This document shows positions 2,491 through 59,814 of a DNA stretch of 64,000 nt, in pieces. The DNA is taken from positions 15,748,001 through 15,812,000 of the forward strand of contig OY740793.1 of assembly GCA_963514005.1 (NCBI GenBank). The letters run 5' to 3'. Position 1 is the stretch's first letter; every line of letters starts with the position of its first letter. The translations under genes were made by a program, and so were the position numbers. Below the pieces are notes generated by a model. That model had not been told where the DNA came from and made no database searches. It saw nothing but the letters and a program-made list of their open reading frames with translations. Source of the DNA: Raja brachyura (Eukaryota).

Positions 2491-4229
2491 ACATTTGAAC
2501 ATAATGGGTACAAGAATAATGGCTACATTTTAACTTCATAACTATCCCCTTGGTAGCTACATGTTATCAGTTCTTATCAGGCTTCTGAATGGTCCCTCCA
2601 TAAGTCAGAGTGCAGTTCCAATTCTCCATTATACCTCATTACAGACACAAAATACTGGAGTAACTCAGCAGGTCAGGTACTCCAGCACTTTGTGTCTTTT
2701 TTTAAAACCAGCATCTGCAGTTCCATGTTTCTATACCTCCTTGCGGACATTGGACTTTTTCTCTTGGACTATTATGTTACAATACTGAGAACTATATTCT
2801 ACATATTATATCTTTTTTGTTCCTCTACCTACTTTAGTTGAATTTGGTTTGATTATATTCATGTATAGGTATGTATTATCTGATTTGATTTTACAGCATG
2901 CAAAATACAGCTTTAAACTGTACCTAAAAAAACCCATCGTTGCAAGGTGTAGGAAGGAACTGCTGATGCTGATTAATATTGAAGATAGACAAAAAATAAG
3001 TCTCTGGTTTATTGCAAAACCGAAACGTCACCTATTACCTTTTCTCCAGAGATACTGCTTGACCCTTTGAGTTACTCCAGCATTTTGTGTCTATCATTCT
3101 TTCTAAATCACTGCACAACCTATTATTTGTTATTTGTAGCCAGGATAACAAAGATATTCCCAAGCCTACTTGTTTTCTGATCCTGGAGGAAAATAGAAAT
3201 AAGGATTTGCAAGCATACAATACCCTACATGGCCACAGCACATTCCAAAATGCCTGTAGCCAATTAAATATTTTTAAGTGGCTGTTATGGGACACCTGGC
3301 AGCTAATTTGGTCACGGCAAGTTTCCAATGTGATAGTGACTACATAATTTGTTCTTTTTAGACATAGACAATAGGTGCAGGAGTAGGCTATTCGAGCCAA
3401 CACCGCCATTCAATGTGATAATGGCTGATCTTGCACAATCAGTACCCAGTTCCTGCCTTCTCCCCATATCCCCTGACTCCGTTACCTGAGCCCTATCTAG
3501 CTCTCTCATGAGAGTATCCAGAGAACCGGCCTCCACCGGCCTCCACCGTCCACTTACTCTCTTCTGTTCTATTCTAGCGAGCCTGCATTTTTAGTTGTTT
3601 ATTGAAGGTTAATATCGACTGAGGCACAGGGATAAACTCTACAGTTCTTGTTCAAGCTGTATCTATGGTTATATTTTGAATCTAGTTGAGGACTGTGCCT
3701 TACTTTAATGTCTCATCAAAAAACAACGACTGCAATCGAGCTGCACTTACATCGAACAGTACAGCACTTACCTGTACATAATTCATATCCCTCCAGTTGC
3801 TGCATATCCAAAAGTCTCTTAAATGCTACTAGTGTTCAGACTCAACTACCAACCCTGGCAGCACGTTCCAGGCACTAACCACAATCTGTGTAAAAAAAAA
3901 TTGACCCGCATATCTCCTTTAAAGTTTTGCTCTCACCTTAAAGCTAGGCCGTCTTGTATTCGATTTTTCCATCCTAAAAGCTTTATCCTATCAATGCCTC
4001 TAATAATTTCACATATTACATTTGTCCTTCAATTCCTCTCTTCAAGGTTTCTCCCCTACCTCTCACCACAATCAGACTGAAGAAGGGCCCCAACGCAAAT
4101 CGTTGCCTATCCATGCTTACAAGAGATGCTACCTGACCTGCTGAGGTACTCCAGCACTTTGTATCCTTTTTTAATAATTTTTACCTAGTAGTTAAATTTC
4201 AATAGAGTGTTCAAGTTCGTGGCCTGTGA

Positions 4230-4520
4230 ATTTAGTTTAGTTTAATTTAGAGATACAGCTCGGACGCAGGCCCTTTGGCCCACCGAGGCTGCACCGACCA
4301 CGCACTAACACTATCCTACACACACCATTACATTTATACCAAACCAATTAACCTACAATCCTGTACGTCTTTGGAGTGTGGGAGGAAACTGAAGATCTTG
4401 GAGGAAACCTACGCAGGTCATGGGGAGAACGCACAAACTCCTTTTGACAAGCACCCGTAGTCAGGATCAAACCCGGGTCTCTGGTGCTGTAAGGCTGTAG
4501 CTCTACTGCTACGCCTTTGT
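4230..4520 (-). mobile_element. V-SINE (HE1-like)
   Basis: (TTTAG)n tail, V-core and box B on the minus strand. Confidence 0.78.
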
Positions 4521-5159
4521 GTAACCTTTCCCCAAATGTTCAAGATCATAAGTTCATATTACATCAGTTAATGAAATCTTACATGGTGGGTTGAAGAAAA
4601 GTGAAGTACTTTGCTCCAAAACCAAGATAATATGTGACAAGGGCATCCCGCCTGTCATTTAGGTTTAACTCAGACAGTTCTCCAGCTGTCTCACCAGCTG
4701 TCATGGACTATGGGGCACAGATGAATGACACGAGCACGTTTGTACAAGTTGCTCAAGCAGCCAACAGTATTACTTGATCAACAATCCGACCAGTCGCCCG
4801 TCAGTTGTATATTCTTAGGATTAGTCCATTGCTATTTCACACATAGCTAATGCAACAGTGTGAATTATAGGTAGCAAGATCAAATTATCAGTTGATCTAA
4901 GATTTATTTTCTCATCTTCAGAAATCTGCGCGTATGCTTATAAACTCTCATAGAATTACTGCTCTCGGCCAATAATCTTTTTTTTGTTGTTTTAGAAACA
5001 TAGAAAATAGGTGCAGGAGGAGGCCATTCTGCCCTTTGAGCCAGCACCGCCATTCATTGTGATCATGGCTGATCGTCCCCAATCAATAACCCGTGCCTGC
5101 CTTCTCCCCATGGAATTCTTGATGGCCAAATATTCCCAAACCAACGGTGAAATACACAT

Positions 5160-5385
5160 CTGACTACGGGTGGGTGCTTGTCTGTATGGAGTTTGTATGT
5201 TCTCCCCGTGATTTGCGTGGGTTTTCTCCGATTTCCTCCCACACTCCAAAGACGTACAGGTTTTGCAGGCTAATTGGTTTTGTATAAATGTAAATTGTCT
5301 ATAGTGTGCGGAGGATATTGTAAGTGTGAAGGGATCGCTGGTCGGCACTGGAAGAGCCTATTTCTGTGCTGTATCTCTAAACTAA
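5160..5385 (+). mobile_element. V-SINE, 5'-truncated
   Basis: V-core and CTGTATCTCTAAACTAA tail. Confidence 0.75.
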
Positions 5386-6399
5386 CAATGTGTGTGTGTC
5401 GCCTACTTGCATTGCTTCAGTCCTTCACAGTGTGGTTGGGTGGGAGGTTACAGGATTTAGACTGGAGTGAAAATGACGGCCTTAATAGTCTGTTGTTGCG
5501 TCAAAGGTGTTTGGTATTGGATAATGGGGAGCATTGGCAGGTCCAGTTAAACTTGTGGCCAATGGTGAACTCAAGGTAATGGTAGAGGATTTAGCAATGG
5601 CAATGCTATAGTTGTACAGATGACCCCTGCATTAAGCAGTGAGGGGTAGGGGTCCATTCCTAGAAAGTAGTCCATGTCTCCATTTTTTTGCAAGCTGCAT
5701 CTCTGTTATACTGAAGAGGATTTGGCAATGGCAATGGTAGATAAAGTAGATTATGCAGAAGACTCCCACATTAGCAGTGGAGGGGGTAGGGATTAATTCC
5801 TAGAAAATTGTCCATGTCTCACTCTTTTGTAAGATGCAGCTGCATCTGCTCTGCATCAAGAAACGAGAGTTGAAAGAAAGTTGGGTGTTTATTTTATTTC
5901 ATGTGAGTTCTGAGAGCTAATTTTACTCTTTACTTGAAATTTCTGGGTGGTGATTTGTTAATTTGTAAACCTGAGGCAAGTAGAGAAGGGCATCAGAGGG
6001 CCGGTGGAAAGATGAGCCAACAAGTCTGTTATAAGGATAGGAGAAGAGGTTGCCAAAGGAAATTCCATCTTGTTTTAAAACATGAAAAATGAAAATAAAA
6101 GGTTGGAGCCGAACAGACTTTCCTCAAGTCTTTCCTCACAACTCGTTATCACCTACCCCACAGCCATCAATGGACCATTGGGGGCTCAACCTTTCTTTGA
6201 TCATCGTTGTTTTTTGGATATCATTCATTCATCCAATGTACCTTCATATCCCTCATTTCCCTTTACCCTGACTGTGTGAAGAAGGGTTTCGACCCAAAAC
6301 ATCACCTGTTCCTTTTCTCCAGAGATGCTGCCTGACCTGCTGAGTTACTCCCACTTTTTGCATCTATTTTCCTCAATAGACCACCAGACCCAGGACCCA

Positions 6400-39800: not shown

Positions 39801-41256
39801 CCAGCTGTTATCAGGCAACTAAACCATCCTATCAACAATTAGAGAGCAGTCCTGAACTACTAGGAAAGAACTGCAGATGCTGGTTTAAATCGAGGTAAAC
39901 ATAAAATGCTGGAGTAACTCAGCAAGACAGCATGACGTTTCGGTCTCAACCCGAAATGTCACCCAATCCTTCTCTCCAGAGATGCTGCCTGTCCCGCTGA
40001 GTTACTCCAGCATTTTGTTATAGTCCTCAATTACTATTTACCTTTCAAGTGGGAGTTAGATTTAGCTCTTAGGGCTAAAGGAATCGAGGGATAAGGGGAA
40101 AAAGTAGGAACGGGTACTAATTTTAGATGATCAGCCATGATCATATTGAATGTCGGTGCTGGCTCGAACGGCCTACTCCTGTACCTATCTTTCTATGTAA
40201 TTGTAGACCTTCAAACTATCTTTGACCGGACTTTACTGGCTTTATCTTGTACTAAATGTTATTCACATTATTCCCTTTAGCACTGTAAATAGCTAGATTG
40301 TAATCATGTATTGTCTTTCCGCTGATTGGATAGCACGAGGGTTAATGGGGAAAGGGGAAAAGGGTGGATGGTGGGGGGGGGGGGAGAGGGGAGGTTGGAT
40401 GAGGGGGGGGGAAGAGGGGAGGGTGGATGAGGGGGGGAAGAGGGGAGGGTGGATGAGGAGGGGGGAAGAGGTGTGGGTGGATGAGGGGGTAGAGGGGAGG
40501 GTGGATGAGGGAGGGGAGGGTGGATGAGGGGGGGAGGGTGGATGAGGGGGGTCTGAGGGTGGATGAGGGGGGGACTGGGGAGGGTGGATGAGGGGGGGAC
40601 TGGGGAGGGTGGATGACGGGGGGGGAGAGGGGAGGGTGGGATGAGGGGGGAAGGGAGGGTGGATGAGGGGGGAAGAGGGGAGGGTGGATGAGGGGAGGGT
40701 GGATGAGTGAGGGGGAGAGTGGATGAGGGGGGGAAGAGGGGGGAGGGTGGATGAGGGGTGGAAGAGGGGAGGGTCGATGAGGGGGGAAAAGGGGAGGGTG
40801 GGGGATGGGGATGGGGCGGGTGGATGAGGGAGGAAAAGGGGAAGGGAGGGGGGATGAGGGGGTGGAGAGTATGGGGGGGAGGATGTGGTGGATGACGAGA
40901 AGCAGGGGAGGGGGATGAGGAGGGAAGGGTGGATGAGGGGGAAGAGGGGAGGGGGGTGAAGGAGGGGGAGGGAAGGGTGGATGAGGGGGGAGGATGATGG
41001 GGGAGAGAGGATGTGGTGGATGACGAGAGGAAGAGCAGGGGAGGGGGAGGAGGGGATCGGGGAGCGGACGGGTCACGGGTGGAGTGAGAGGAGGAGGAGG
41101 GAGGGAGGGAGGGAGTGGGAGAGGGGGAGGAGGAGGAGGGGGGCAGCAGGGGCCGGTGTGTTGGGGGAGAGTGGAGGGTAGATGGGGGGAGGAACAACTC
41201 TGAGGCTATGACTACCCTCCGGCAGCCCCTACCTTGGGCGTGATGATGTGCTCCAT
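12542..41256 (-). CDS. MTMR8: Myotubularin-related protein 8 (PI3P/PI(3,5)P2 phosphatase), whole spliced CDS, 14 exons, ~641 aa
   Basis: Exons 41233-41256, 33281-33403, 32505-32667, 29069-29226, 25904-26032, 25685-25819, 24143-24275, 23070-23179, 22100-22225, 19831-19880, 17620-17820, 15699-15827, 14322-14448, 12542-12859. All introns are GT-AG and phases are consistent (1926 nt). Motifs [20 protein letters not shown] and [18 protein letters not shown], plus ASB12 synteny, favour MTMR8 over MTMR6/7. Confidence 0.92.
12988..13310 (+). mobile_element. tRNA-derived V-SINE (HE1-like), full length
   Basis: Box B GGTTCGATCC; V-core GGAGTTTGCA..CTCC..CGTGGGTTTTCTCC..TTTCCTCCCAC; CR1-like tail GAAGGGCCTGTT..CTGTAT.TCTAAA. 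Confidence 0.8.
13487..13727 (-). mobile_element. CR1 3' fragment
   Basis: Near-identical to the 3' end of 6400-7728; CATAGAAA tail. Confidence 0.85.
14014..14225 (-). mobile_element. Penelope-like pLTR fragment with hammerhead core (14080-14107)
   Basis: Reverse complement matches the ORF end (ATTTTCTCAATTCTGTTAACCC) and pLTR of the 20090-21083 element; CUGAAGA-A-GGG...CCC-GAAAC-GUU. Confidence 0.8.
14322..14448 (-). CDS. MTMR8: MTMR8 exon 13 ([10 protein letters not shown]..., coiled coil)
   Basis: AG/GT flanked, 127 nt. Confidence 0.92.
14605..14860 (+). mobile_element. V-SINE
   Basis: tRNA-like head and V-core. Confidence 0.7.
15699..15827 (-). CDS. MTMR8: MTMR8 exon 12 ([10 protein letters not shown]...YRNPLY...)
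   Basis: Translated by hand; AG/GT flanked, 129 nt. Confidence 0.92.
16755..17025 (+). mobile_element. V-SINE
   Basis: GGTTCGATCC, V-core, CTAAACTAAA tail. Confidence 0.78.
17070..17560 (+). mobile_element. CR1 3' fragment (different subfamily)
   Basis: Degenerate RRFTR..PG...LSY.ERL..LGLYS.ERRRLRG; FTQRVV. Confidence 0.75.
17620..17820 (-). CDS. MTMR8: MTMR8 exon 11 (CGH...[25 protein letters not shown]...)
   Basis: Translated by hand; AG/GT flanked, 201 nt. Confidence 0.93.
18002..18565. mobile_element. PIF/Harbinger-type MITE inserted in a CR1 remnant
   Basis: ~35-bp TIR AGGGCCTGTCCCACCAGCATG..ACTCTATGCGAT; TAA TSD at 17999-18001 and 18566-18568; no transposase. Confidence 0.82.
19831..19880 (-). 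CDS. MTMR8: MTMR8 exon 10 ([17 protein letters not shown])
   Basis: Translated by hand; AG/GT flanked, 50 nt. Confidence 0.92.
20090..21083 (+). mobile_element. Penelope-like element 3' part (GIY-YIG endonuclease plus pseudo-LTR)
   Basis: Hand translation: [10 protein letters not shown]..., [47 protein letters not shown]...VAQHFN...QPLGLNIEF; pLTR with hammerhead motif. Confidence 0.9.
20991..21018 (+). ncRNA. Hammerhead ribozyme core in the PLE pseudo-LTR
   Basis: CUGAAGA-A-GGGUCUCGACCC-GAAAC-AUC. Confidence 0.55.
22100..22225 (-). CDS. MTMR8: MTMR8 exon 9, catalytic CX5R motif ([12 protein letters not shown])
   Basis: AG/GT flanked, 126 nt. Confidence 0.94.
23070..23179 (-). CDS. MTMR8: MTMR8 exon 8 ([25 protein letters not shown]...)
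   Basis: Translated by hand; AG/GT flanked, 110 nt. Confidence 0.92.
23510..23828 (-). mobile_element. V-SINE
   Basis: V-core and tail on the minus strand. Confidence 0.72.
24143..24275 (-). CDS. MTMR8: MTMR8 exon 7 ([19 protein letters not shown]...)
   Basis: AG/GT flanked, 133 nt. Confidence 0.93.
24460..24850 (-). mobile_element. V-SINE with a nested PLE hammerhead-pLTR piece (~24531-24630)
   Basis: SINE tail interrupted by CTGAAGAAGGGTCTTGACCCAAAACGTC... Confidence 0.72.
25685..25819 (-). CDS. MTMR8: MTMR8 exon 6 ([13 protein letters not shown]...VDTRPK)
   Basis: AG/GT flanked, 135 nt. Confidence 0.92.
25904..26032 (-). CDS. MTMR8: MTMR8 exon 5 (TCNTY...[16 protein letters not shown]...)
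   Basis: Translated by hand; AG/GT flanked, 129 nt; followed by an 84-nt intron. Confidence 0.92.
28166..28977. repeat. Local ~165-bp diverged direct repeat (28166-28328 and 28808-28977) in MTMR8 intron 4
   Basis: AAATTGGATATGACACGG...GAAAGCAATATGTAGCCTCC occurs twice. Confidence 0.85.
29069..29226 (-). CDS. MTMR8: MTMR8 exon 4 ([10 protein letters not shown]...NENYE)
   Basis: AG/GT flanked, 158 nt. Confidence 0.92.
31265..31929 (+). mobile_element. CR1 3' fragment
   Basis: ORF 31229..31837; TTTCTATG tail. Confidence 0.92.
31995..32485 (+). mobile_element. Rex1/Babar-type LINE 3' fragment (a related piece spans ~39555-40340)
   Basis: Degenerate [14 protein letters not shown]..., IIKD.SHP.HSLF.PLP; ends GTGACAATAAA. 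Confidence 0.6.
32505..32667 (-). CDS. MTMR8: MTMR8 exon 3 ([13 protein letters not shown]...LSQP)
   Basis: AG/GT flanked, 163 nt. Confidence 0.92.
33281..33403 (-). CDS. MTMR8: MTMR8 exon 2 (PH-GRAM; [10 protein letters not shown]...RKETW)
   Basis: CAG|GTA acceptor, TGG|GT donor, 123 nt. Confidence 0.92.
34860..35760 (-). mobile_element. CR1 3' fragment
   Basis: ORF 35002..35436 LVRPHLEYC. Confidence 0.88.
36735..37020 (-). mobile_element. V-SINE
   Basis: V-core and tail on the minus strand. Confidence 0.75.
38378..39557 (-). mobile_element. CR1 LINE, 5'-truncated
   Basis: ORF 38469..39485 RT; CATAGAAA tail. Confidence 0.93.
40345..41195 (+). repeat. G-rich minisatellite (GGGTGGATGAGGGG-type unit) at the 5' end of MTMR8 intron 1
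   Basis: Many degenerate gagggtggatgaggggg units; nearly C-free on the + strand. Confidence 0.9.
41233..41256 (-). CDS. MTMR8: MTMR8 coding exon 1 (MEHIITPK)
   Basis: GCCATGG Kozak ATG at 41256; AAG|GTAG donor. Confidence 0.9.
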
Positions 41257-41720
41257 GGCGGGGTCTGGCAGCGCAGAGCAGCGTCCCCTGCCCCGGGCGG
41301 GTGTGTGTGTGTGTGGGCGGGAGGGAGAGAGGGGGCGGTCAGGCGCCGGGCTGGGGCAGCGCCTCAGAGCGGCCGGACGCCGCCACCACCACCGTCAGCC
41401 GCCGCCATTTCCGGCAGCCCAGCACCACGTGACCCGCGGCCGCCAGCCCCGCCCCCGGGCAGGAGGGGCACCGTGCTCTCGCGAGACCCGGTGCTGAGCA
41501 GGAGGAGCGGGGCTGGCGAGGCGGGGCTAGGTGGTGGGAGGGGCTGGGCTGGATGAGGGACGGGGCTGGATGATGGGCGGGGCTTGGTGAGGGGCGGGGC
41601 TAGGCGGTGGGAGGGGCTGGAGGGTGGGCGGGGCTGGGTGATGGGCGGGGCTATATGAGGAGCGGGGCTTCTAGGGGGCGGGGCTCGATTAGGGGGCGAG
41701 GCTAGTAGAGGGGCGGGTCC
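41257..41720 (-). promoter_or_regulatory. MTMR8 CpG-island promoter / 5' UTR
   Basis: GC- and CpG-rich. GCCGCCATTTCCGG (YY1 plus ETS) at 41401-41414, CACGTGAC E-box at 41426-41433, TCTCGCGAGA palindrome at 41477-41486, multiple GGGCGGGG GC boxes at 41520-41720. Confidence 0.8.
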
Positions 41721-43960: not shown

Positions 43961-45052
43961 CAACACTATGTACGTGGAGCAAAACACAAAGTGCTGGCAG
44001 CAGTCAATGGGTCAGGGCAGCATCTGTGGAGGAAATGGACAGACGACATTTGCTGCAGAATCCTTCATTTCATTTCCTCCACAGATGCTGCTTGACATAC
44101 TGAGTTACACCAGAACTTTGTGTTTTGCATAGGATTCTGAAGTTCTTTATGTCTCGTGCATTTGTATGAACTATAAATGTAAAGAAAGCCCTATACTGTT
44201 TTGTTTTTCTTATATATATATATTTTAAGAACATATGATTTTTAATTTTTTTTAAACTTCCTATGCTTTTACAATCCCCATTCACTACTTCAAGACCACC
44301 TGTTTTTGTGCTGTCAATGGAGTGTCTGTTCTGGACTCAACATTTTTTCTTCTTGGCTAATCTCCAATTAGTCAACTTTGACAAAATTCAGCTTGTCCAG
44401 TTTGCCCAACATCATGTTTATATTTATTGTCGTTGGCTTCCAAGTTCTGAAGACCTTGGTTAAACATTGTCACCATCATCTCTGAATTCTCATTGGGCCT
44501 ATTATTTTTCTATCTCAGTAACTTTCTATAGATCATTACCAAATGTTCTGCCCACTTCAGGCTATCTTTGCTCTATTGGTAGATTGTGGCTACAGTCCCA
44601 TTTTTTGTGATTCCGTTGTCAAATTCATTCACATCTGCTCTAAAAAAGGATCCCTTTGGATCCCTCGTGGTCAGTATGAGATATTATGGAACATTTTTTA
44701 AATTAAAGCACTGTATAAAAATGCCAGCAATTAATAATGGTATACCCAAATCTTCTTTGTCTGCTGGGAACTAAATAAAAAGCTCTGGCCCTTGGAATCC
44801 ATCATATTTTAAACTCTCCAATTTGCGCCAAATTAGTTTATCTGACTGGCCATCTATTTTACTTTGGAGTCACGTGGGTGATTCCGTGAAGAAGGCCCGC
44901 CAGTGCGCATGCTCATCATTACGTCAGACGCATGGCGTAACGACAGGCTGGAGAGCGCAGCTTCACCAGCGGTAAGTTTAAAAACTCACAGGTAAGTTTT
45001 AAACTATGCTGCGAATGCCCCTAAGTTCCATAAGGCTGGTTTCAGGAGCGAG

Positions 45053-46246
45053 GTGTGCGCCGACAAAATCAGAGAAACTGACCGCAGGACCGCGGCCAGC
45101 GGGCGGGCGCTTATGCCGGCTCCAGAACCGCCGGCAGTACAGCCAGCGGCAGCGACTCCGGTGCCACAGAGCACCATGGCCACTCCAGTCGGGAGGAAGG
45201 CCAAAAGAAAGTCAGTAAGGCCTGTCGACTCTGATGAGTCAGGCCAAGAAGACTCCCCTCCCACCAGCAAAAACGTTTGGGGACGTCTAGATAAAATGAA
45301 ACACATCTTAGAAAGAATACTCAATCATGAGGTGTCCCAACCAGGGTTTTATACCCCCGGGTTTCCTCAGCAGCACTCAGCAGCAAACTCCGGCAGAGGT
45401 TCATATAGGGAAGAACTGTACCTTCAGGAGGAACCATATGTCCACGAGTCTGCATGGGGGCCCATACCAGCAGCGCCAGGTCAAAGGCTGCATGATACCT
45501 CCCTTGTGCATGAGCAGGGAGAGCCAGGGCAGTATGACTCTGACCGTGAAGTTGGTGGTATAGCAGAGGAGCATACCCCAAAGCACATGAGCTTAGCTCC
45601 AGGTGTGCCGGATGTGGCATGTAAATTCACCATACCGGCTGGTGAGGAAATGTAGGAAAATCTGGCCAGGAACATCAATTATATGGCCTCTCATTGCTCC
45701 ACGAATCCATTATTGATGAAACTTCTAAGAGATACGAAACACCTGTAAACTGTGCATCGCTCAGAGTGCCCACAATGAACCAGGCCATCTGGGGGGCAAA
45801 TGGGCGCAACCATGCGGTTGCATGAGTTAAGGCTGCAAAAAGTCTTAAAATTAATCGGAGCAGGAATAACGGCATTTTGGCGGACAGTCGAAGGGGCACC
45901 ACTATCGAACACACAGCAGGATATGTTGGCCCTGCTGTGTAATGCCCACTTCTAAGTTAATTGCCTAAGAAAAACCACCATCAAGCCTACGCTCAACCCA
46001 AGATTCGCAGCCTTATGCAGATCCTCCAACATTCAGCCACCAAACATATTGTTTGGGAAGGATCTAGCAAAACAAGTCAAGGACTTGGATGACGAGGCAA
46101 AGACGATCGGCCTCATTAAAACACATTCCTCAGGCAGGATGCCACCTCGTCGACCATACCCCTTCAGATGGGTCACAGACGCTGGTGCAGGGCTCTTCCA
46201 TCACTACGCCATTGACATGCACCAGTCACACCCCCAACAGAACTAG
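45053..46246 (+). pseudogene. DIRS ORF1 (gag-like), interrupted by stops/frameshifts
   Basis: ORF 45053..45655, then LRVPTMNQAIW and LFGKDLAKQVK segments. The homologous GR.AKRKS.RPV.SDES segment is also in DIRS copy 2. Confidence 0.65.
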
Positions 46247-46268
46247 GAGACAAAGGAATCCAGCAACT

Positions 46269-49200
46269 ATGGAGGTCCGAGTAACTGGACTTGACCAGGA
46301 CATATCCTCTAGAGACCAGTCGCCAGTAGGGGGTAGATTGCAATTGTTCTACGATGAATGGTGCTGAATAACATCAGATCCGTTTATACTGGACAGTATC
46401 CGGGGGTCTCGAATTGAGTTTATCTCTGAATTACATGCACCCATACCACATACACCAAGTCCGGTATTGGTGTTTTCAAAACCAGAAACTCTACAGGTAA
46501 ATGATGAAATTGAAATATTATTCAAAAAAGTGGTCATTGAAAGGACGGCTCATCAGCCTCAACAATTTGTGTCTAATATATTCCCCAGGCAAAAGAAGAG
46601 GATGGTGGGTGTCGAGTTATTCTAGACCTAATCCGACTGAACTCCTATGTCAAAGAATCATAGAATCATACAAAATAGGTGCAGGAGTAGGCCATTCGGC
46701 CCTTTGAGCCTGCACCGCATGATCATGGCTGATCATCCTATTCAGTATCCTGTACCTGCCTTCTCCCCATACCCCCTGATCCCTTTAGCCACAAGGGCCA
46801 CATTTAACTCCCTCTTAAATATAGCCAATGAACTGGCGTCAACTACCTTCCATGGCAGAGAATTCCACAGACTAACACTCTGTGAAAAATGATTTTCTCA
46901 TCTCGGTCCTAAAAGACTTCCCCCTTATGCTTAAACTGTGACCCCTTGTTCTGGAGTTCCCCAACATCGGGAACAATCTTCCTGTATCTAGCCTGTCCAA
47001 CCCCTTAAGAATTTTGTAAGTCTCTATAAGATTCCCCCTCAATCTCCTAAATTCCAGCGAGTACAAGCCGAGTCTATTCAGTCTTTCTTCATATGGAAGT
47101 CCTGCCATCCCAGGAATCAGTCTGGTGAACCTTCTCTGTACTCCCTCTATGGCAAGAATGTCTTTCCTCAGATTAGGAGACCAAAACTGTACACAATACT
47201 CCAGGTGTGGCCTCACCAAGACCCTGTACAACTGCAGTAGAACCTCCCTGCTCTTGTACTCAAATCCTTTTGCTATGAATGCCAACATACCATTCGCTTT
47301 CTTCACAGCCTGCTGCACCTGCATGCCTACTTTCAATGACTGGTGTACCATGACACCCAGGTCTCGTTGCATCTCCCCTTTTCCTAATCGGCCACCGTTC
47401 AGATAATAGTCTACCCTCCTGTTTTTGCCGCCAAAGTGGATAACCTCACATTTATCCACATTATACTGCATCTGCCATGCATTTGCCCACTCACCCAACC
47501 TATCCAGATCACCTTGCAGCCTCCTAGCATCCTCCTCACAGCTAACACTGCCCTCCAGCTTCGTGTTATCCGCAAACTTGGAGATGTTGCATTCAATTCC
47601 CTCATCCAGATCATTAATATATATTGTAAATAGCTGGGGTCCCAGCACTGAGCCTTGCGGTACCCCACTAGTCACTGCCTGCCATTCTGAAAAGGGCCCG
47701 TTTACTCCTACTCTTTGTTTCCTGTCTGCCAGCCAGTTCTCTATCCATATCAATACTGAACCCCCAATACCATGTGCTTTAAGTTTGAATGCTAATCTCT
47801 TATGTGGGACCTTGTCAAAAGCCTTCTGAAAGTCCAGATATAACACATCCACATGTTCTCCCTTATCCACTCTACTAGCTACATCCTTGAAAAATTCTAT
47901 AAGATTCGTCAGACAGGATTTACCTTTCATAAATCCATGCTGACTTTGTCCAATGATTTCACCACTTTCCAAATGTGCTGCTATCCCATCTTTGACAACT
48001 GACTCTAGCATTTTCCCCACTACCGATGTTAGACTAACTGGTCTGTAATTCCCTGTTTTCTCTCTCCCTCCCTTTTTAAAAAAGTGGGGTTACATTTGCT
48101 ACCCTCCAATCCTCAGGAACTACTCCAGATTCTAAGAGTTTTGAAAAATTATCACTAATGCATCCATTTCTGGGGCTACTTCCTTAAGTACTCTGGGATG
48201 CAGCCTATCTGGCCAGGGGAATTTATCGGCCTTTAATCCATTCAATCTACCTAACACCACTTCCCGGCTAACCTGGATTTCACTCAGTTCCTCCATCTCA
48301 TTTGACCCCCGGTCCCCTGCTATTTCCGGCAGATTATTTATGTCTTCCTTAGTGAAGACAGAACCAAAGTAGTTATTCAATTGGTCTACCATGTCCTTGT
48401 TCCCCATGATCAATTCACCAGTTTCTGACTGCAAGGGACCTACATTTATTTTAACTAATCTTTTTCTCTTCACATATCTATAAAAACTTTTGCAGTCTGT
48501 TTTTATGTTCCCTGCCAGTTTTCTTTCATAATCTATTTTCCCTTTCCTAATTAAGCACTTTGTCCTCCTCTGCTGGACTGAATTTCTCCCAGTCCTCTGG
48601 TAGGCTGCTTTTTCTGGCTAATTTGTATGCTTCATCTTTAGTTTTGATACTATCCCTGATTTCCCTTGTTATCCAGTATAAACATTTTAAAATGGAAACT
48701 TTCAGTACTGCTAAGCAACTGGCTTCCAAAGGATGTTATATGGCGAGTATAGATCTGAAAGATGCATATTATTCAGCACCAATTCACCACAAATACCGTA
48801 GATACTAGAAATTTAGTTGGATGAGGCAGCTGTGGCAATTTAAAACTTTGCCCAATGAGTTAACCTCAGCCCCTAGGTTATTTACAAAATTGTTGAAACC
48901 AGTATTAGGACTACTCCGGGCTCAGAATCACATTGTGACGGCATACTTGGATGATGTTCTGATCATAGGCAATACTCACGAGGCAGCTAAATTGTTGGTT
49001 TCAGATACCAAACATATGTTTGAGAGGTTAGGTTTCCTCATCTATCCAACTAAATCCAAATTAATGCCATTTAGAATCATTGACTATTTTGGGTTCACCA
49101 TTGATTCAACTAACATGTCAGTGACTCTGCCTATGGCCAAAGCTTTAGAAATTATGGAGGCCTGCAGCAATCTGGTAGATGAACAGCAACCCTCCATCCG

Positions 49201-50227
49201 ACGAGTGGCCAGTTTTATTGGCAAATTAGTGGCGGCTTTCCCTGGAGTGCAATTCGGGCCTCCACACTATCAGAATGTGCAACGAGCTAAGGAACAGCCA
49301 CTCAAAAAACACGCGGGTCATTTCGATAGATCAATGCAGTTGCCAGTCAAAGCTATCACCGAGTTGCAATGGTGGATAACTAATTTTTCATGTTGTACTA
49401 GAAACATTCTGACTAAACAACCTTCAGTTGTTTTACAAACTGATGCGAGTGCTTCGGGTTGGGGAGCCACTGATACCAATTCTAGCTGTGGCGGCAGATG
49501 GAGTGTGCAAGAGGCATTGATCCTGCAGATGCATGGGATAAACTATTTAGAATTGTTGGGGGCATTCTATGGCCTAAAAGCGTACTGTTCAACAATACAT
49601 GATTCACATGTTCAACTCCAGATTGACAATACCACAGCTGTTGCACATATCAATCACATGGGTGGAATTAAATCATCATCATGTGATAATCTGGCTAACC
49701 TCATCTGGCACTGGTGTATTACGAGAAACATCTGGGTCCCAGCAATCTACCTACCAGGTAGAGATAACGTGGTGGCAGACACCAGGTCGTGTAAATTTAA
49801 TGACAACACAGAATGGATGCTGAATCCAAAGGTTTTCAAAAAGATTGTCACCCAGTATGGATTGCCAGACATAGGTCTGTTTGCATCCAGGCTGAATCAC
49901 CAGTTACCTAAATACATCTCATGGGAACCGGATCCAGGGGCAGTAGCGGTGGATGCATTCTTGCTACATTGGGGAGGTATGTTCTTTTACGCTTTTCCCC
50001 CATTCTGCCTTATCAGTCAATGTCTCACCAAAATTAAGCAGGACTCCGCTTCAGGCGATTTGGTAGTTCCTGACTGGGCCACACGGCCATGGTTCCCATT
50101 GGTTCTGAGACTGATGACACAGCCATTCATGGTTATCCCCAAATGCAGCAACTTGTTGGTTCACCCTGTGACAGGAGAGAGTCACCCTTTACATGATCGT
50201 ATTAATCTGTTGATTTGCAGATTCTGA
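46269..50227 (+). pseudogene. DIRS RT / RNase H / methyltransferase-like ORF, split by a CR1 insertion
   Basis: PVGGRL..., CRVILDL..LNSYV|QYKHFKME, SIDLKDAYY, AYLDDVLI, QTDASASGWG, INYLELL, IDNTTAV, LFASRLN...YAFPPF. Confidence 0.9.
46652..48674 (-). mobile_element. CR1 (HER1-like) LINE, 5'-truncated, inserted in the DIRS RT
   Basis: ORFs 46872..48020 and 48132..48473 (YLDFQKAFDKVPH, GVPQGSVLGP, KFADNTK); (ATTCTATG)n tail; DIRS frame resumes on both sides. Confidence 0.93.
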
Positions 50228-51330
50228 CCAGATCGTTCCAGGAGCTCGGACTATTGAGTCGGACCGTGGATGTGATTACTGCGGCCTGGAGGGATAGTAC
50301 TAAAAAACAATATGTATCTCGTATTAAGAAATGGGAGATGTTCTGCTTACTGTCAAATATATCTTATCATACTGCAGGCATACCTGATGTATTGGAGTTC
50401 CTTGCTACATTGCATTTTGACGAGCAATTGAGTTATAGTGCCATTAATAGTGCTCGGAGTGCTTTGTCCTCCTATTTATGACAGGGGTCGGGACAACACT
50501 CTGTCGGATCTCATCCATTGGTGTCCCGATTCATGAAAGGTGTTTTTAACAAGAACCCTCCCAGTCCTAGATATACGGAAATCTGGGATGTGAGCATAGT
50601 CCTCACACTGCTTCGGCAATGGGCTCAAATTACATCTCTGTCTTTCCAAAAACGAACGCTCAAAGTGGTCATGCTCATGGCACTCGTTTCAGCACAACGG
50701 GTCCAGACATTGCAAAAGCTACAACTGGACAGCATGCATTCTTCTGTAGATAATATTACGTTTTATGTATATGACCTAATCAAACAAAGCAGGCCAGGGA
50801 CGTCTGGAACCAAAATAAGTCAAGTCAAAAGTCAAAGTCAAACAAACTTTATTGTCATTTAGAAATACATTGATACATGCAGTTCCAAACGAAATTACGT
50901 TGCATTTGGCTCCCTGTGCAACACAATAAATTAACCGAAGGATAGGCATGGGTGAAAAGGATAAATAGACACTAGTGGCAGCCCATGCCCAAGCTTTTGA
51001 GTATAGCCCATTGACCTGAAACTGTGTGTAGTTACGCACCTGCGGCAATATATGGAGGTCACCAAGAGTCTCAGAGGCCCCGAAACAACGATGCTCATCA
51101 GTCACAAAATCCCTCATAGAAAGGTGTCGGTACAAACCATTTCTAGATGGCTGAAACAGGTTTTGGATTGTGCTGGAGTAGACACTGATGTGTTTAAATC
51201 TCACTCCACCAGGGCGGCGTCAACATCCGCAGCGAGGGCACTGGACGTCCCTTTAGACTAAATCTTCGGGGCTGCAGGATGGTCCAGTGAAGGGACTTTT
51301 TAACGGTTTTATGGCAAACCTGTTCTCACA
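50221..51330 (+). pseudogene. DIRS tyrosine recombinase ORF, decayed
   Basis: WRDSTKKQY, LSYSAINSARSALS, SAQRVQTL (box I Arg), KSHSTRAASTS (HxxR), AAGWS, F.RFY (catalytic Tyr); stops and a 171-bp insertion. Confidence 0.88.
50820..50990 (-). mobile_element. Short LINE/SINE 3' fragment inserted in the DIRS YR
   Basis: Absent from DIRS copy 2; AATAAA plus (TTTGAC)n-like tail on the minus strand; flanked by AAG on both sides. Confidence 0.7.
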
Positions 51331-51535
51331 ACGGAAGGATTTGGGCATGCTATTTGGGTTCTGTTTTGTAATTTCCCCCTGGGAGAGAGGAGTTATTACT
51401 GTTCTTTTTTGTTATTAAAACATTCATTTGTATAATTCAAACAATGTTCAATACATTATTTGTTTATCCTGTGTCAACCGAAGCAGTGTGTTGTATGGAA
51501 CTGAATCTACGGCATGAAATCACAGAGCTTTGAAA

Positions 51536-51648
51536 TCTTCACGGAATCACTCGCGTGACTCTGAAGTAAAATGGTAAGATTAAACGAGAACTTACCAGTT
51601 TGAAATTCGATCTTTATTTTATGAGGAGTTACGGTGAGTGATTACGTG
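51536..51648 (+). other. DIRS internal complementary region (ICR), copy 1
   Basis: First part is the reverse complement of the element 5' end (44857-44892); second part is the reverse complement of the 3' extension (~51794-51870). Confidence 0.9.
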
Positions 51649-52189
51649 CCCTCCGCTCTCGGCCCTCATAATCGCAAAGATCATCTGGTAGTTCTAGTCT
51701 TCTGAGTCTTACTATATTACTTTGACTGTGGTTACTGTGATTTCACGCTGCTGCTTTGTAGATCGACGCACATGCGCACTGGCGGGCCTTCTTCACGTAA
51801 TCGCTCACCATAACTCCTCATAAAATAAAGATCAAACTTCAAACTGGTAAGTTCTCATTTAATCTTACTATTTTCAATCCATTTTATTCCACTTATAATT
51901 GTAGTACAATACAATAAACACTTGCCTTGACATTGCAAGTAAACAGCACAACAAAAAGCGCATGTGTAAATCAGAGAGTTACAAAAAAGGACAAAATGGT
52001 CTGGAGTAACTCAACAGGTTACATAAAAAGACACAAAAGGTGGAGTAACTCTACGTGTTACAACCATCTCTGGAGGAAATGGAAAGGCAAACTTTTGGCT
52101 TGGGACCCTTAAACAATAAAATGCTCAGTACAGCTGACTCCCAAAATATAGTCATTCTGGTAATGGATTTCATTGCTAGATTCTCAAAT

Positions 52190-56720: not shown

Positions 56721-57760
56721 TTCTCTATGTTTTATGTTCTATTTCAAGAAAACAGTGATTCGCTGGGTAAATAAAAATTTTACTTCGGAGTCACGTGACT
56801 GACTGTGTGAAGAAGCCCCGCCAGGCGTATGCGCGTCATTATGTTCGATGCATGGCGCACCGACGGGCTGGAGAGCGCAGCTCCACCATCGGTAAGTAGT
56901 AAACCGGCAGGTAAGTGATTTTAAAACTTTTCTGCGGGTACTTAAACTCCGTGAGTCTGGCTCGGGAGCCAGCGGGAGTTGTTAGCAATGGAGCGAGTTG
57001 GGAAAAAACCAGTCCGTAGTAGGAGCTTAACGCGCGGGCCCGCGGTTAGTATTTGCAGATCGGGTTGGGAGATACCGGCTGCGGTAACGCCGGCTCCGAC
57101 ATCGGCTGCTGATCTACCGGCAGCTCAACTGCCTCCGTTAACTCCAGTGCTTCAGGGCACTGAGGCCACTCCACCAGGGAGGCAGGCCAAAAGAAAATCT
57201 CTCAGGCCCGTCTTATCCGACGAGTCTGATGAGGAAGACTCCCCTCCTTCCAGCAAAAAGGTCTGGGGATGGCTCGATCAAATGAAGAAAATGTTGCAAA
57301 CTTTGTTGAGCCATAAAATATTTCAATCGGGGTCGAATGCCCCTAGGATTCCCCAAACAGCAGTAGCGGTGGATGCATTCTCGCTACTTTGGGGACGTAC
57401 GTTCTTTTACGCTTTTCCCCCATTCTGCCTCATTAGGAAATGCCTCACCAAAATAGAGCAGGACTCCGCCTCAGGCGTTTTGGTGGTTCCGGACTGGCCT
57501 ACACAGCCATGGTTCCCATTGGTGCTGAGAATGATGACTCAGCCATTTATGGCTGTCCCCAACTGCAGTAATTTGTTGGTGCATCCAGTAACAGGAGAAA
57601 GTCATCCGTTACATGATCGTATTAATCTGTTAATCTGCAGGTTCTGACCAGAATGTTCCAAGGGCTTGGACTATCGAGTAGGACCATGGATGTGATAACT
57701 GCAGCTTGGAGAGATAGCACTAAAAGCAATATGTGTCTCATATTAAGAAATGGGAGATGT

Positions 57761-57983
57761 GTTAAAGAAGGAACTGCAGATGCTGGAGAATCGAGGGTTA
57801 CACAAAAAGCTGGAGAAACTCAGCGGGTGCAGCAGCATCTAAGGAGCGAAGGAGATAGGCGACGTTTCGGGTCGAGACCCTTCTTCAGACTGAAGAAGGG
57901 TCTCGGCCCAAAACGTGGCCTATCTCCTTCGCTCCTCAGATGCTGCTGAACCCGCTGAGTTTCTCCAGCTTTTTGTGTAACCC
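57761..57983. mobile_element. Palindromic Penelope-derived element with hammerhead motifs on both strands and a 16-bp TSD
   Basis: 94-bp inverted arms (57795-57888 / 57890-57983). AAGAAATGGGAGATGT is duplicated at 57745-57760 and 57984-57999 but single in DIRS copy 1. Confidence 0.85.
57861..57888 (-). ncRNA. Minimal type I hammerhead ribozyme core (PLE-type)
   Basis: Minus strand CUGAAGA-A-GGGU(CUCG)ACCC-GAAAC-GUC: intact core boxes, helix II, palindromic ACGU in place of helix III; helix I weak. Confidence 0.6.
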
Positions 57984-59814
57984 AAGAAATGGGAGATGTT
58001 TTGCTTGCAGTCAGATATATCTTATCATACTGCAAGCATACCGGATGTATTGGAGTTCCTTGCTACATTGCATTTTGATGATCTCTTGAGCTATAGTGCC
58101 ATTAATAGTGCTCGGAGTGCTTTGTCCTCATATTTAGGGCAGTTTTCAGAACAACAATCTATCGGGTCTCATCTGTTAGTGTCCCGATTCATGAGAGGAA
58201 TCTTTAACAAGAACCCTCCTAAGCCTAGATATACAGAAATCTGGGATGTCAGTGTAGTTCTCACACTGCTTTGGCAATGGGCTCCAATTACGTCACTGTC
58301 TTTTCAGAAGTTAACACTTAAAGTGGTTATGCTCATGGCGCTAGTATCAGCGCAACGAGTTCAAACATTGCAAAAGCTATGACTAGATAGCATGTACTCT
58401 TCTGTAGATAACATTACGTTTTATGTGTTTGATTTAATCAAACAAAGCAGGCCAGGAATGGCCGGAACCAAAGTAAGCTTTAAAGCATACCCCGTTGACC
58501 AAACGTTACGTGTAGTCAAGCACCTGAGTCAATATATCGAGGTAACGAAGAGTCTCAGAGGCTCTGAGACAGCAATGCTCATCAGTCACAAAAAAAACTA
58601 ATAAAAAGGTGTCAGCACAAACTATTTCTAGATGGTTAAAACAGGTTTTGATTGTGCTGGAGTAGACACTCATGGGTTTAAATCTCACTCCACCAGGGCG
58701 ACATCGACATCCGCAGTGAAGGCACAGGACGTGCCTCTATACCAAATCCTCTGGGCCGCAGGATGGTCTAGGGAGGCGACCTTCTCCAAATTCTTTGATA
58801 AACCTGTCCTGAAAGTGCAAGGTTTTGGGCATGCTGTTTTGGGTTTGGTTTGATTTATTTTCTTTCTAAATTTCATTTGTAATTTCCCCCTGGGACAGAG
58901 GGTTTATTACTGTTTTGTTTATTATTATTTAAAACGTTTATTGGATAATTCGAAGCAATGTTCATTACATTTCTTCACTACTATGTCAACTGAAGCAGTG
59001 TGTCGTATATAATGGATTTACAGCATGAAATCACAGAGCTTTGAAATCTTCACGTAGTTACTCACGTGACTCCGAAGTAAAATAGTAAGATTAAACGAGA
59101 ACTTATCAGTTTGAAGTTTGATCTTTATTTTATGATGGGTTATGATGATGGATTACGTGCCTTCCGCTCCCGGCCCTCATAATCGCAAAGAACATCTGGT
59201 AGTTCTAGTCTTCTGAGTCTTGCTATATCACTTCGATTATAATTTCTATGTTTTCACGCTGCTGCTTTGAAGTATGATGCTCATGCGTCTGGCGGGGCTT
59301 CTTCACGTAATCCCTCATCGTAACTCCTCATAAAATAAAGATCAAACTGGCAAGTTCTCATTTAATCTTACTATTAAAGGACATGGGTAACTAGAAATGA
59401 TATCAAGCTTATTTTTGTTTCTTATTTCTACGGATATATTCACGGCAACACTTTGCAGAGTTTTGCTGAAAAGGTATTCTGATGTCAGCTGGTGCAGATC
59501 CATTTGGCTCTGCTGAGGAGTGTTACTCACCTCTCTCCTGTGCTGAATCAGCACTCTGTTGATGTAAATGTTGAGAACATGTCTTTCATGAGGGTGAAAC
59601 ATTGCATGAAGTTTGACACAAAATGCTGCGTGACTCAGCGGGCCAGGCAGCATCTGTGGAGAGAAGGAATGAATGGGAGATGTTTTAGGTCGAGACCCTT
59701 GGTTTGTCTGTTCATGTTACAATGTGTTAATAGAGTGTAAATGTTTGGCAGCTGGATATAATTATTATTCGGTGAATAGCATTTACAAATTTTAGAGTCA
59801 TATAGAGTCACATA

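Follow-up and report, generated by a model that had tools for sequence, protein, structure and literature searches.

Conserved donor and acceptor sites flank pol in DIRS1-like retrotransposons of Raja brachyura and may join Gag to the tyrosine recombinase

In retroviruses, the 3' gene env is reached by splicing, and the unspliced RNA serves as the genome. Splicing also sets the ratio of structural to enzymatic protein in Drosophila copia, which makes a spliced gag RNA, and in foamy viruses, which make a spliced pol RNA, and the -1 gag-pol frameshift of the HIV type occurs at the heptamer UUUUUUA. Among DIRS retrotransposons, DIRS-1 of Dictyostelium and the Xenopus DIRS-like families have been described as carrying gag, reverse transcriptase and RNase H (RT/RH), a methylase-like domain and a tyrosine recombinase (YR), together with inverted terminal repeats (ITRs), an ICR complementary to both ends, and TTT termini (PMC7192593; bioRxiv 2021.08.05.455354). 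The portions of these two papers considered here speak of overlapping open reading frames (ORFs), mention no route of YR expression, and leave the translation of the third ORF unaddressed; in the portion of the former so considered, the DIRS replication cycle is termed little known, and most of the left repeat is missing from DIRS-1 RNA (PMC7192593).

The window, i.e., the whole stretch of 64,000 nucleotides analysed here, contains two copies of a DIRS retrotransposon, both of them dead; the element has many relatives. Copies 1 and 2 represent two subfamilies (A and B, respectively) of one lineage, and their parts are as follows, with a slash marking each splice point:

44857..44918, + strand: left terminus and left ITR of copy 1, with what we take to be E-box-, CRE- and NRF1-like motifs
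44909..44971, + strand: leader ATG of copy 1 and its 21-codon frame to donor 1, a short upstream ORF in unspliced RNA
44972..44977, + strand: donor 1 of copy 1, CG/GTAAGT, weaker, and missing in families C and D
44992..44997, + strand: donor 2 of copy 1, CAG/GTAAGT, located between +132 and +140 in the intact leaders of every family
45053..46274, + strand: gag region of copy 1, its ATG removed by a small deletion, with stops and frameshifts
46272..46280, + strand: donor 3 of copy 1 at the gag/pol boundary, GAG/GT at 46275, phase 0 in the pol frame
46275..50220, + strand: predicted retained intron of copy 1, the RT/RNase H/methylase region
46652..48671, - strand: LINE fragment within pol of copy 1, presumably CR1-like
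50192..50227, + strand: branch-point-like TGAT, AG-free tract, acceptor TTGCAG/ (AG ending at 50220) and RT stop TGA of copy 1
50221..51371, + strand: YR ORF of copy 1, with stops and a 171-nt insert at 50820-50990
51537..51874, + strand: ICR, right ITR and right terminus of copy 1
56777..56916, + strand: left terminus, leader ATG (56829), donor 1 (56892) and donor 2 (56911) of copy 2
56988..57361, + strand: gag start of copy 2, brought up against the end of pol (at about 57360) through a 2.5-kb deletion in which donor 3 was lost
57612..59376, + strand: acceptor (AG ending at 57640), YR, ICR and right end of copy 2, with a SINE-like insert in YR at 57764-57983

Both copies are decayed. Copy 1 has lost its gag ATG and carries stops, an insert in YR, and a LINE in pol that lengthens its predicted pol intron beyond the ~1.9 kb of full copies; copy 2 lacks ~2.5 kb, the gag-end donor included, and its deletion break (~57360) does not lie at a splice site. 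By its sequence, the element is a DIRS1-like retrotransposon. Pfam places RVT_1 at 48809-50224 of the window and in an intact relative (L176), whose YR, which replaces an integrase, carries PF00589 and SAM-like domains, and a search with the N-terminus of the window's YR leads to PF00589 proteins. The Dam (methylase-like) match in L176 is weak (E 0.004, below the cut-off), and the first ORF, which matched no Pfam family, is gag-like in that it is long, lies upstream of RT, and is similar to the gag of echinoderm and metagenome DIRS. The termini consist of inverted repeats with an ICR complementary to the ends; in relatives, the left ITR spans about +26 to +61, and the terminus from +1 to +35 pairs with the ICR. 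A Ngaro/PAT-like element was rejected, as the repeats are inverted and accompanied by an ICR rather than being split direct repeats. The coding regions, ITRs, ICR, and TTT termini are likewise those of DIRS-1 and the Xenopus DIRS-like families; in contrast to these, RT and YR here overlap by a few codons only, gag and pol form one ORF in some families, and a conserved donor and acceptor flank pol.

The acceptor lies at the end of RT, where an earlier note on this DNA had placed it: the AGs end at 50220 in copy 1 and at 57640 in copy 2, and ILTR.. and VLTR.. then follow in frame. The site holds well beyond the window, 37 of 40 own-genome copies, drawn from ~12 DIRS families, having a YAG in this position, and it is the only column with a YAG and tract in all 11 family representatives. 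Among the representatives, 11 of 12 carry a TRAY motif between -40 and -18, and all 12 are free of AG from -20 to -3. By a crude score built on approximate splice-site frequencies, the tract is modest (rank 1 to 41 among the 229-327 AGs per element), and it overlaps conserved RT codons (H-D, C-R-F). Downstream, YR codons 4-15 are under purifying selection (pN/pS of 0.35 in the YR frame vs. 0.99 and 1.73 in the other frames), so that YR needs an upstream start; a start at codon 16, which is ATG in 51 of 58 copies of subfamily B and GTG in 36 of 46 of subfamily A, was rejected. YR has no start of its own, as had been noted for copy 1, its first Met lying at codon 88-105 in families E, G, and J. 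The early YR ATG noticed in copy 2 does exist (codon 5) but is private, being found in 1 of 104 aligned junctions.

The end of RT may also be read without splicing, with YR translated either by reinitiation after the RT stop, at a TTG/CTG 10 nt upstream, or by a -1 slip that would yield Gag-Pol-YR. Many relatives carry an ATG in place of this TTG/CTG, and 51 of 136 homologues have Met at the second codon before the end of the acceptor; the RT stop keeps a constant position two codons past the acceptor AG, and the YAG is CAG, not TAG, in 36 of 37 loci, as an open frame would need. Nevertheless, donor 3, the branch-point-like motif, and the AG-free zone would be left unexplained, the TG is preceded by a pyrimidine in 11 of 12 representatives and in none by a base that would make ATG, neither A nor B shows an evident slippery heptamer around the RT stop, and invertebrate loci have RT running well past the YR start. 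Translation of YR from unspliced RNA is, on this evidence, unlikely.

Donor 3, which the earlier note had missed, faces this acceptor from the other end of pol. It reads AG/GTR in phase 0 in each of the 11 family representatives (a set that excludes E2). As the families are related, these do not amount to 11 independent events; H groups with F and an A/B-like copy. No other column across 2.45 kb reaches at least 6 of 11, and the surroundings are otherwise unalignable (local identity 0.32). The residue before the site varies (E, Q, K), its codon always ends in AG, and the Val at the site is encoded by GTA in 10 of 11 representatives, as compared with 91 of 325 Val codons in five intact ORFs. 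Measured in 19 A copies and 24 B copies, the gag ATG lies 1275 nt (425 codons) and 1278 nt, respectively, before donor 3, phase 0 in both, and the donor is also found in one invertebrate locus (L197). It is only moderate in A, B, F, and H (GTACGA, GTACGG, GTACAG, GTACAT), the first two being the commonest forms among A and B copies, respectively, and has decayed to GTCCGA in copy 1. Conservation within a family was rejected as a measure of selection, since copies decay once inserted. It could be argued that the splice-like motifs are all by-products of protein motifs, hairpins, and promoter spacing, given the overlap of the acceptor with RT codons, the predicted hairpin at donor 1, and the occurrence of GTAAG in the ICR and right end as well; yet donor 3 combines a linker of such low identity with a strict synonymous choice, and YR in E, G, and J would be left without a start, which makes an origin of this kind highly improbable.

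In the earlier note, the YR start codon had been assigned to a spliced leader exon, and the observations behind this proposal are accurate: ATG 44909 of copy 1 opens MLIITSDAWRNDRLESAASPA, 63 nt in phase 0 up to GCG/GTAAGT (44972), ATG 56829 of copy 2 opens MRVIMFDAWRTDGLESAAPPS, again 63 nt in phase 0 up to TCG/GTAAGT (56892), and second donors are present at 44992 and 56911. As the two copies are subfamilies of one lineage, they are not independent evidence for the leader frame, and since two leader ATGs and two donors make four combinations, a single one in frame is close to what chance would give. The leader proves open and in frame in 5 of 11 families only, via donor 1 in A, B, and F (63 nt) and via donor 2 in C and E (87 nt). 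These five frames do speak for direct joining of a leader exon with its own ATG, through donor 1 (or 2), to the YR acceptor, with gag and pol skipped, as do the retention of 63 nt in F despite a 1-nt loss plus a 1-nt gain, the absence of a YR Met for 104 codons in E, and the fact that donor 2 is usually the strongest donor of the element. However, D, G, I, J, and K have a leader that is either not in phase or interrupted by a stop, H is without any leader ATG, and donor 2, though universal, offers no open in-phase frame in A and B; in four families (G, I, J, and K), a missing or blocked leader ATG coincides with a YR that has no early Met. The distance from the leader ATG to donor 2 is 86-87 nt in six families irrespective of whether the frame is open, and so looks like spacing rather than coding. 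Moreover, the ATG sits inside the left ITR, most of which is absent from DIRS-1 RNA according to the portion of the paper considered here (PMC7192593). Among copies picked by their junctions, the frame from ATG to donor 1 is open and in phase 0 in 4 of 16 from A and 15 of 30 from B, which weighs little because dead copies decay. The leader ATG is therefore probably not the general YR start, and a doubtful prospect attaches to the leader-exon route as a whole. A 5' UTR intron, or U1 binding close to the promoter, is the likely role of the leader donors; families C, D, E, J, and K have an acceptor-like site 49-71 nt past donor 2, just before the gag ATG. Donor 1 is predicted to be hairpin-paired in the A and E copies folded. 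An in-frame family K leader in one copy (L185) was set aside as the result of a 15-nt deletion in that copy, 6 of the 9 leaders listed being 87 nt with a stop.

Splicing itself stands as the likely route to YR, and the evidence favours removal of pol only, from the gag-end donor, over the skipping of gag and RT. This DIRS1-like clade keeps the phase-0 donor at gag/pol and the phase-0 acceptor at YR, and we judge it somewhat probable that removal of the 1.9-kb pol by splicing gives it a Gag-recombinase fusion. Pol would then be an alternatively retained intron: unspliced RNA would act as the genome and as the Gag-Pol message, and spliced RNA, translated from the gag ATG, would give Gag-YR. Gag and pol are one ORF in A, B, G, H, and probably F, and the spliced product of A and B would comprise about 425 Gag and about 325 YR residues. 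In C, D, and E, where gag and pol are split, the slippery heptamer UUUUUUA lies in the gag frame upstream of donor 3, so that spliced RNA would give mostly Gag and some Gag-YR by a -1 frameshift; a scan of one J copy revealed no slippery site. This is the same heptamer as in the HIV-type site, and it is also implied by the sea-urchin proteins, but its position upstream of the donor means that it would feed both Gag-Pol and Gag-YR. The fusion would bring the recombinase into the particle, as Gag-Pol brings the integrase in LTR elements. The proposed element would resemble retroviruses in reaching its 3' gene by splicing and keeping unspliced RNA as the genome, whereas its donor likely lies after gag rather than in the leader, and the product would be an integrating enzyme fused to Gag rather than env. 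As in copia and foamy viruses, splicing would set the structural to enzymatic ratio; copia splicing yields Gag alone, whereas removal of pol here would join Gag in frame to the third ORF.

Use of donor 3 might alternatively yield free YR, if translation began at an ATG two codons before the donor (ATG GAG/, ATG CAG/) through reinitiation after the gag stop or an extra small exon. Such an ATG is present in A, B, D, E, and G, and lies 2 nt past the gag stop in an ACCATGG context in D and E; it is missing in C, F, H, I, J, and K, no gag stop precedes it in A, B, and G, and a conserved acceptor upstream of it was looked for without success, so that we give this possibility little credence. Nor was a conserved pol acceptor, as in a layout of one leader and three acceptors, found in the own-genome families.

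In four contig runs whose RNA origin is only guessed, none of the joints listed against a subfamily A copy (15 of 39) falls at the predicted sites, and the same is true of all seven joints against a family C copy; in one of these guessed-RNA runs, deep contigs cross donor 2 and pol unspliced, at a flat depth like that of DNA. Genomic searches for spliced DNA in A/B returned one leader-to-acceptor match, carrying an unrelated 11-nt spacer, and no donor 3-to-acceptor match in A, while family C exon ends were followed by a non-G base in 0 of 994 cases at donor 2 and in none at donor 3. No genomic copy in spliced form was thus found, though spliced RNA would retain the ITRs and the ICR, an absence that counts in favour of translation without splicing. 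Our literature search found no report of a spliced DIRS YR; the Goodwin/Poulter papers and Repbase Reports, which lay outside its coverage, may describe one.

For an animal DIRS clade ranging from echinoderms to cartilaginous fishes, we lean, with slightly better than even confidence, towards a whole pol that is a retained intron, with one promoter giving Gag-Pol from unspliced and Gag-recombinase from spliced RNA and an upstream -1 frameshift feeding both. If true, this would explain both the expression and the packaging of the DIRS recombinase. Annotation would change as well: in these elements the YR ORF would become a second exon of gag, and where an ATG precedes an annotated YR ORF, as it does in many, translation need not begin there. 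The exact junction bases are testable in a genome with about a thousand near-identical young copies of family C (994 leader matches).

Among computed RefSeq predictions from echinoderms, three models speak for the proposed fusion. Of 36 long YR homologues, 21 link pol to YR, and in one Gag+YR model (P0236) the join falls within both domains, showing that predictors make many joins. XP_072015819.1 (Amphiura filiformis) has the gag end joined in frame to the YR open frame. XP_071502116.1 and XP_071483612.1, from different contigs of the sea urchin Diadema antillarum, are Gag+YR models without RT; both join at ...PKE/VLKLPF, exactly at the donor 3 and YR acceptor sites, the unspliced YR reading MLQ/VLKLPF, and the join lies 17 nt past the gag stop, in the -1 frame.

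The two DIRS1-like elements of the window, both falling within the DIRS1-like group, are decayed, copy 1 by a LINE inside pol, an insert inside the tyrosine recombinase ORF (YR) and loss of the gag ATG, and copy 2 by a SINE-like insert and the deletion of 2.5 kb. Re-reading of the window sequence confirmed every coordinate, peptide, donor and acceptor of the earlier note, which had proposed that a leader ATG and its donor are spliced to the YR acceptor, skipping gag and RT. DNA searches of the 2.7-Gb host genome, whose repeats look like those of a shark or ray, returned 2804 to 6038 first-look candidates, with 40 scored per search, and 120 A and B loci were fetched for comparison (fetched loci bear L numbers); protein searches revealed additional DIRS families, several of them young, from which 40 further loci were fetched and sorted by eye into families C to K. 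The principal features are as follows.

Window, about 44857-51874: copy 1, decayed DIRS1-like element, subfamily A
Window, about 56777-59376: copy 2, decayed DIRS1-like element, subfamily B
Window, 46275: GT of donor 3 at the gag/pol boundary of copy 1, absent from copy 2
L153:2950-2956, L161:2951-2957 and L164:2992-2998 (oriented): heptamer UUUUUUA, in frame with gag, where gag and pol overlap in split families

Subfamily A keeps the acceptor AG in 44/46 junctions and subfamily B in 56/58 (both window copies counted, loci without an alignable junction left out), and YAG stands at the homologous position in 37/40 further-family loci, the misses being two deletions and one point change. The acceptor tract is modest; 11/12 representatives have a branch-point-like TRAY between -40 and -18, 12/12 are AG-free from -20 to -3, and RT ends with C-R-F-stop two codons past the acceptor in nearly all loci. 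YR codons 4-15, which are coding in the YR frame only, have a pN/pS of 0.35, similar to the 0.38 of codons 16-27, whereas the two alternative frames give 0.99 and 1.73; the ATG at codon 16 in B, C, F and H is therefore ruled out as the YR start. The codon-5 ATG noticed earlier in copy 2 exists and is private to that copy (1/104 junctions). Families E, G and J have their first YR Met at codon 88-105. Two codons before the YR exon start, 51 of the 136 homologues having a residue there carry Met and 40 carry Leu; the codon is TTG or CTG in 11/12 representatives of this genome. Judged from sequence, YR is in need of an upstream start.

A donor missed by the earlier note, donor 3, came to light in a search for a pol acceptor. 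It lies up to about 19 codons upstream of the VGGRL-like RT start and 1883-1944 nt upstream of the acceptor, and its phase in the pol frame is 0. The gag ATG precedes it by 425 codons in A and by 426 in B. AG|GTR occurs there in 11/11 representatives, the sole column with at least 6 across the 2.45 kb aligned, at a local identity of 0.32. The residue just before it varies among E, Q and K with a codon always ending in AG (background in five intact ORFs, 331/733 E, Q and K codons ending in G), and the Val codon is GTA in 10/11 (91/325 Val codons in the same background); that such splice-like motifs are a product of chance is highly improbable. On balance, we favor a reading in which unspliced RNA would serve as genome and Gag-Pol message and RNA spliced from donor 3 to the YR acceptor would encode Gag-YR, directly in families with fused gag-pol and via a frameshift in split ones. 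Use of donor 3 together with a local ATG seems quite unlikely.

Gag and pol form a single ORF of about 1050-1090 codons in A, B, G and H (e.g., L176:1810-5076, oriented), in contrast to the three-ORF layout in the accessible portions of published DIRS descriptions, and these families have no obvious route to free Gag. For A and B, column counts on near-full copies (19 and 24, respectively) give one long gag-pol ORF and a stop that closes the YR frame five codons before the acceptor. In the split families C, D and E, the gag stop falls 8 nt before donor 3, and T TTT TTA is present upstream in the gag frame; invertebrate locus L197 has AAAAAAC at the corresponding overlap, and the single copy of J scanned has no slippery heptamer. 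The heptamers suggest -1 frameshifting in DIRS, on which a literature search found no paper; that reinitiation or frameshifting yields YR without any splicing is doubtful.

Support also comes from beyond this genome. Among 20 metagenome loci examined, the readable ones have a YR frame that stays open upstream for 27-90 codons. This frame starts directly after a pyrimidine run plus TAG, in phase 0, in L192/L199, L193, L197/L198/L207 and L208; most of these runs, however, overlap conserved FPPF codons. L197 carries the gag-end donor. Two computed RefSeq models of Diadema antillarum, on different contigs, represent Gag+YR without RT, joined as PKE|VLKLPF (MLQ|VLKLPF in unspliced YR) 17 nt past the gag stop, and in a permissive test all 40 positions of the segment before the join fit the gag end read in its -1 frame. 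A computed Amphiura model likewise has the end of gag fused to the open frame of YR. As a caveat on such computed models, 21/36 long homologues are pol+YR joins, and in one Gag+YR model the join lies elsewhere.

The proposal that the leader exon supplies the YR start is unlikely: the leader ATG is open and in phase 0 to donor 1 in A, B and F (63 nt) and to donor 2 in C and E (87 nt), but in D, I, J and K a stop blocks it or its phase is wrong, in G it is out of phase, and H, which clusters with F and an A/B-like copy (support 99/99), lacks it. The ATG-to-donor-2 spacing is 86-87 nt in six families, whether the frame is open or not. Its position, about +52 to +55 for the ATG counted from the element 5' end, falls within the left ITR (inner end +59 to +62 in most of the families compared); since DIRS-1 RNA is described, in the available part of PMC7192593, without most of the left repeat, the ATG would by analogy sit near or upstream of the cap. 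Families C and D lack donor 1; donor 2 is strong and present in all families and has another possible partner, because an acceptor-like site follows at 49-71 nt, directly before the gag ATG, in C, D, E, J and K. This pair, observed at about +137 to +192 in L153, L161, L164, L184 and L185, may be a very short 5' UTR intron, which 0/994 genomic copies of family C have lost.

In two alignments of contigs guessed to be RNA, none of the joints listed was a predicted one. Genome pattern searches found no spliced-form DNA copy; any spliced RNA would thus return to DNA too rarely to be detected, which a signal inside pol could explain. No account of a spliced DIRS YR was found in the literature searched, which did not reach the Goodwin/Poulter papers, and none of PMC7192593, PMC9341512, bioRxiv 2021.08.05.455354, PMC6681497, PMC5941688 and PMC3636483 treats YR splicing in the portions available.

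Several further observations were made. A GC-rich hairpin before the leader donors (window 44945-44971), differing in sequence and kept in 8/9 leaders folded, is a candidate packaging or priming signal; independent short deletions with differing breakpoints in L125, L127, L128, L112 and L073 each remove a hairpin arm and donor 1. Downstream of their YR junctions, L105, L092, L111, L113 and L117 contain another match resembling a leader or ICR; in L105 it is the leader of a different DIRS family within YR, which suggests nested insertion. Family C (e.g., L152-L154) is very young: its 21-nt leader motif has 994 exact matches, and more than 120 of its YR ORFs are nearly identical. Seven same-strand YR copies at G000:C14:44580567-45054757, about 70-105 kb apart and six with identical scores, probably reflect tandem duplication of a large segment that includes a DIRS. 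In the window, the SINE-like insert in the copy 2 YR (57795-57983) is a near-perfect 94-nt inverted repeat, and 40300-41700 holds a promoter-like low-complexity G-rich tract with an array of a 17-nt GGGCGGGGCT-type repeat.
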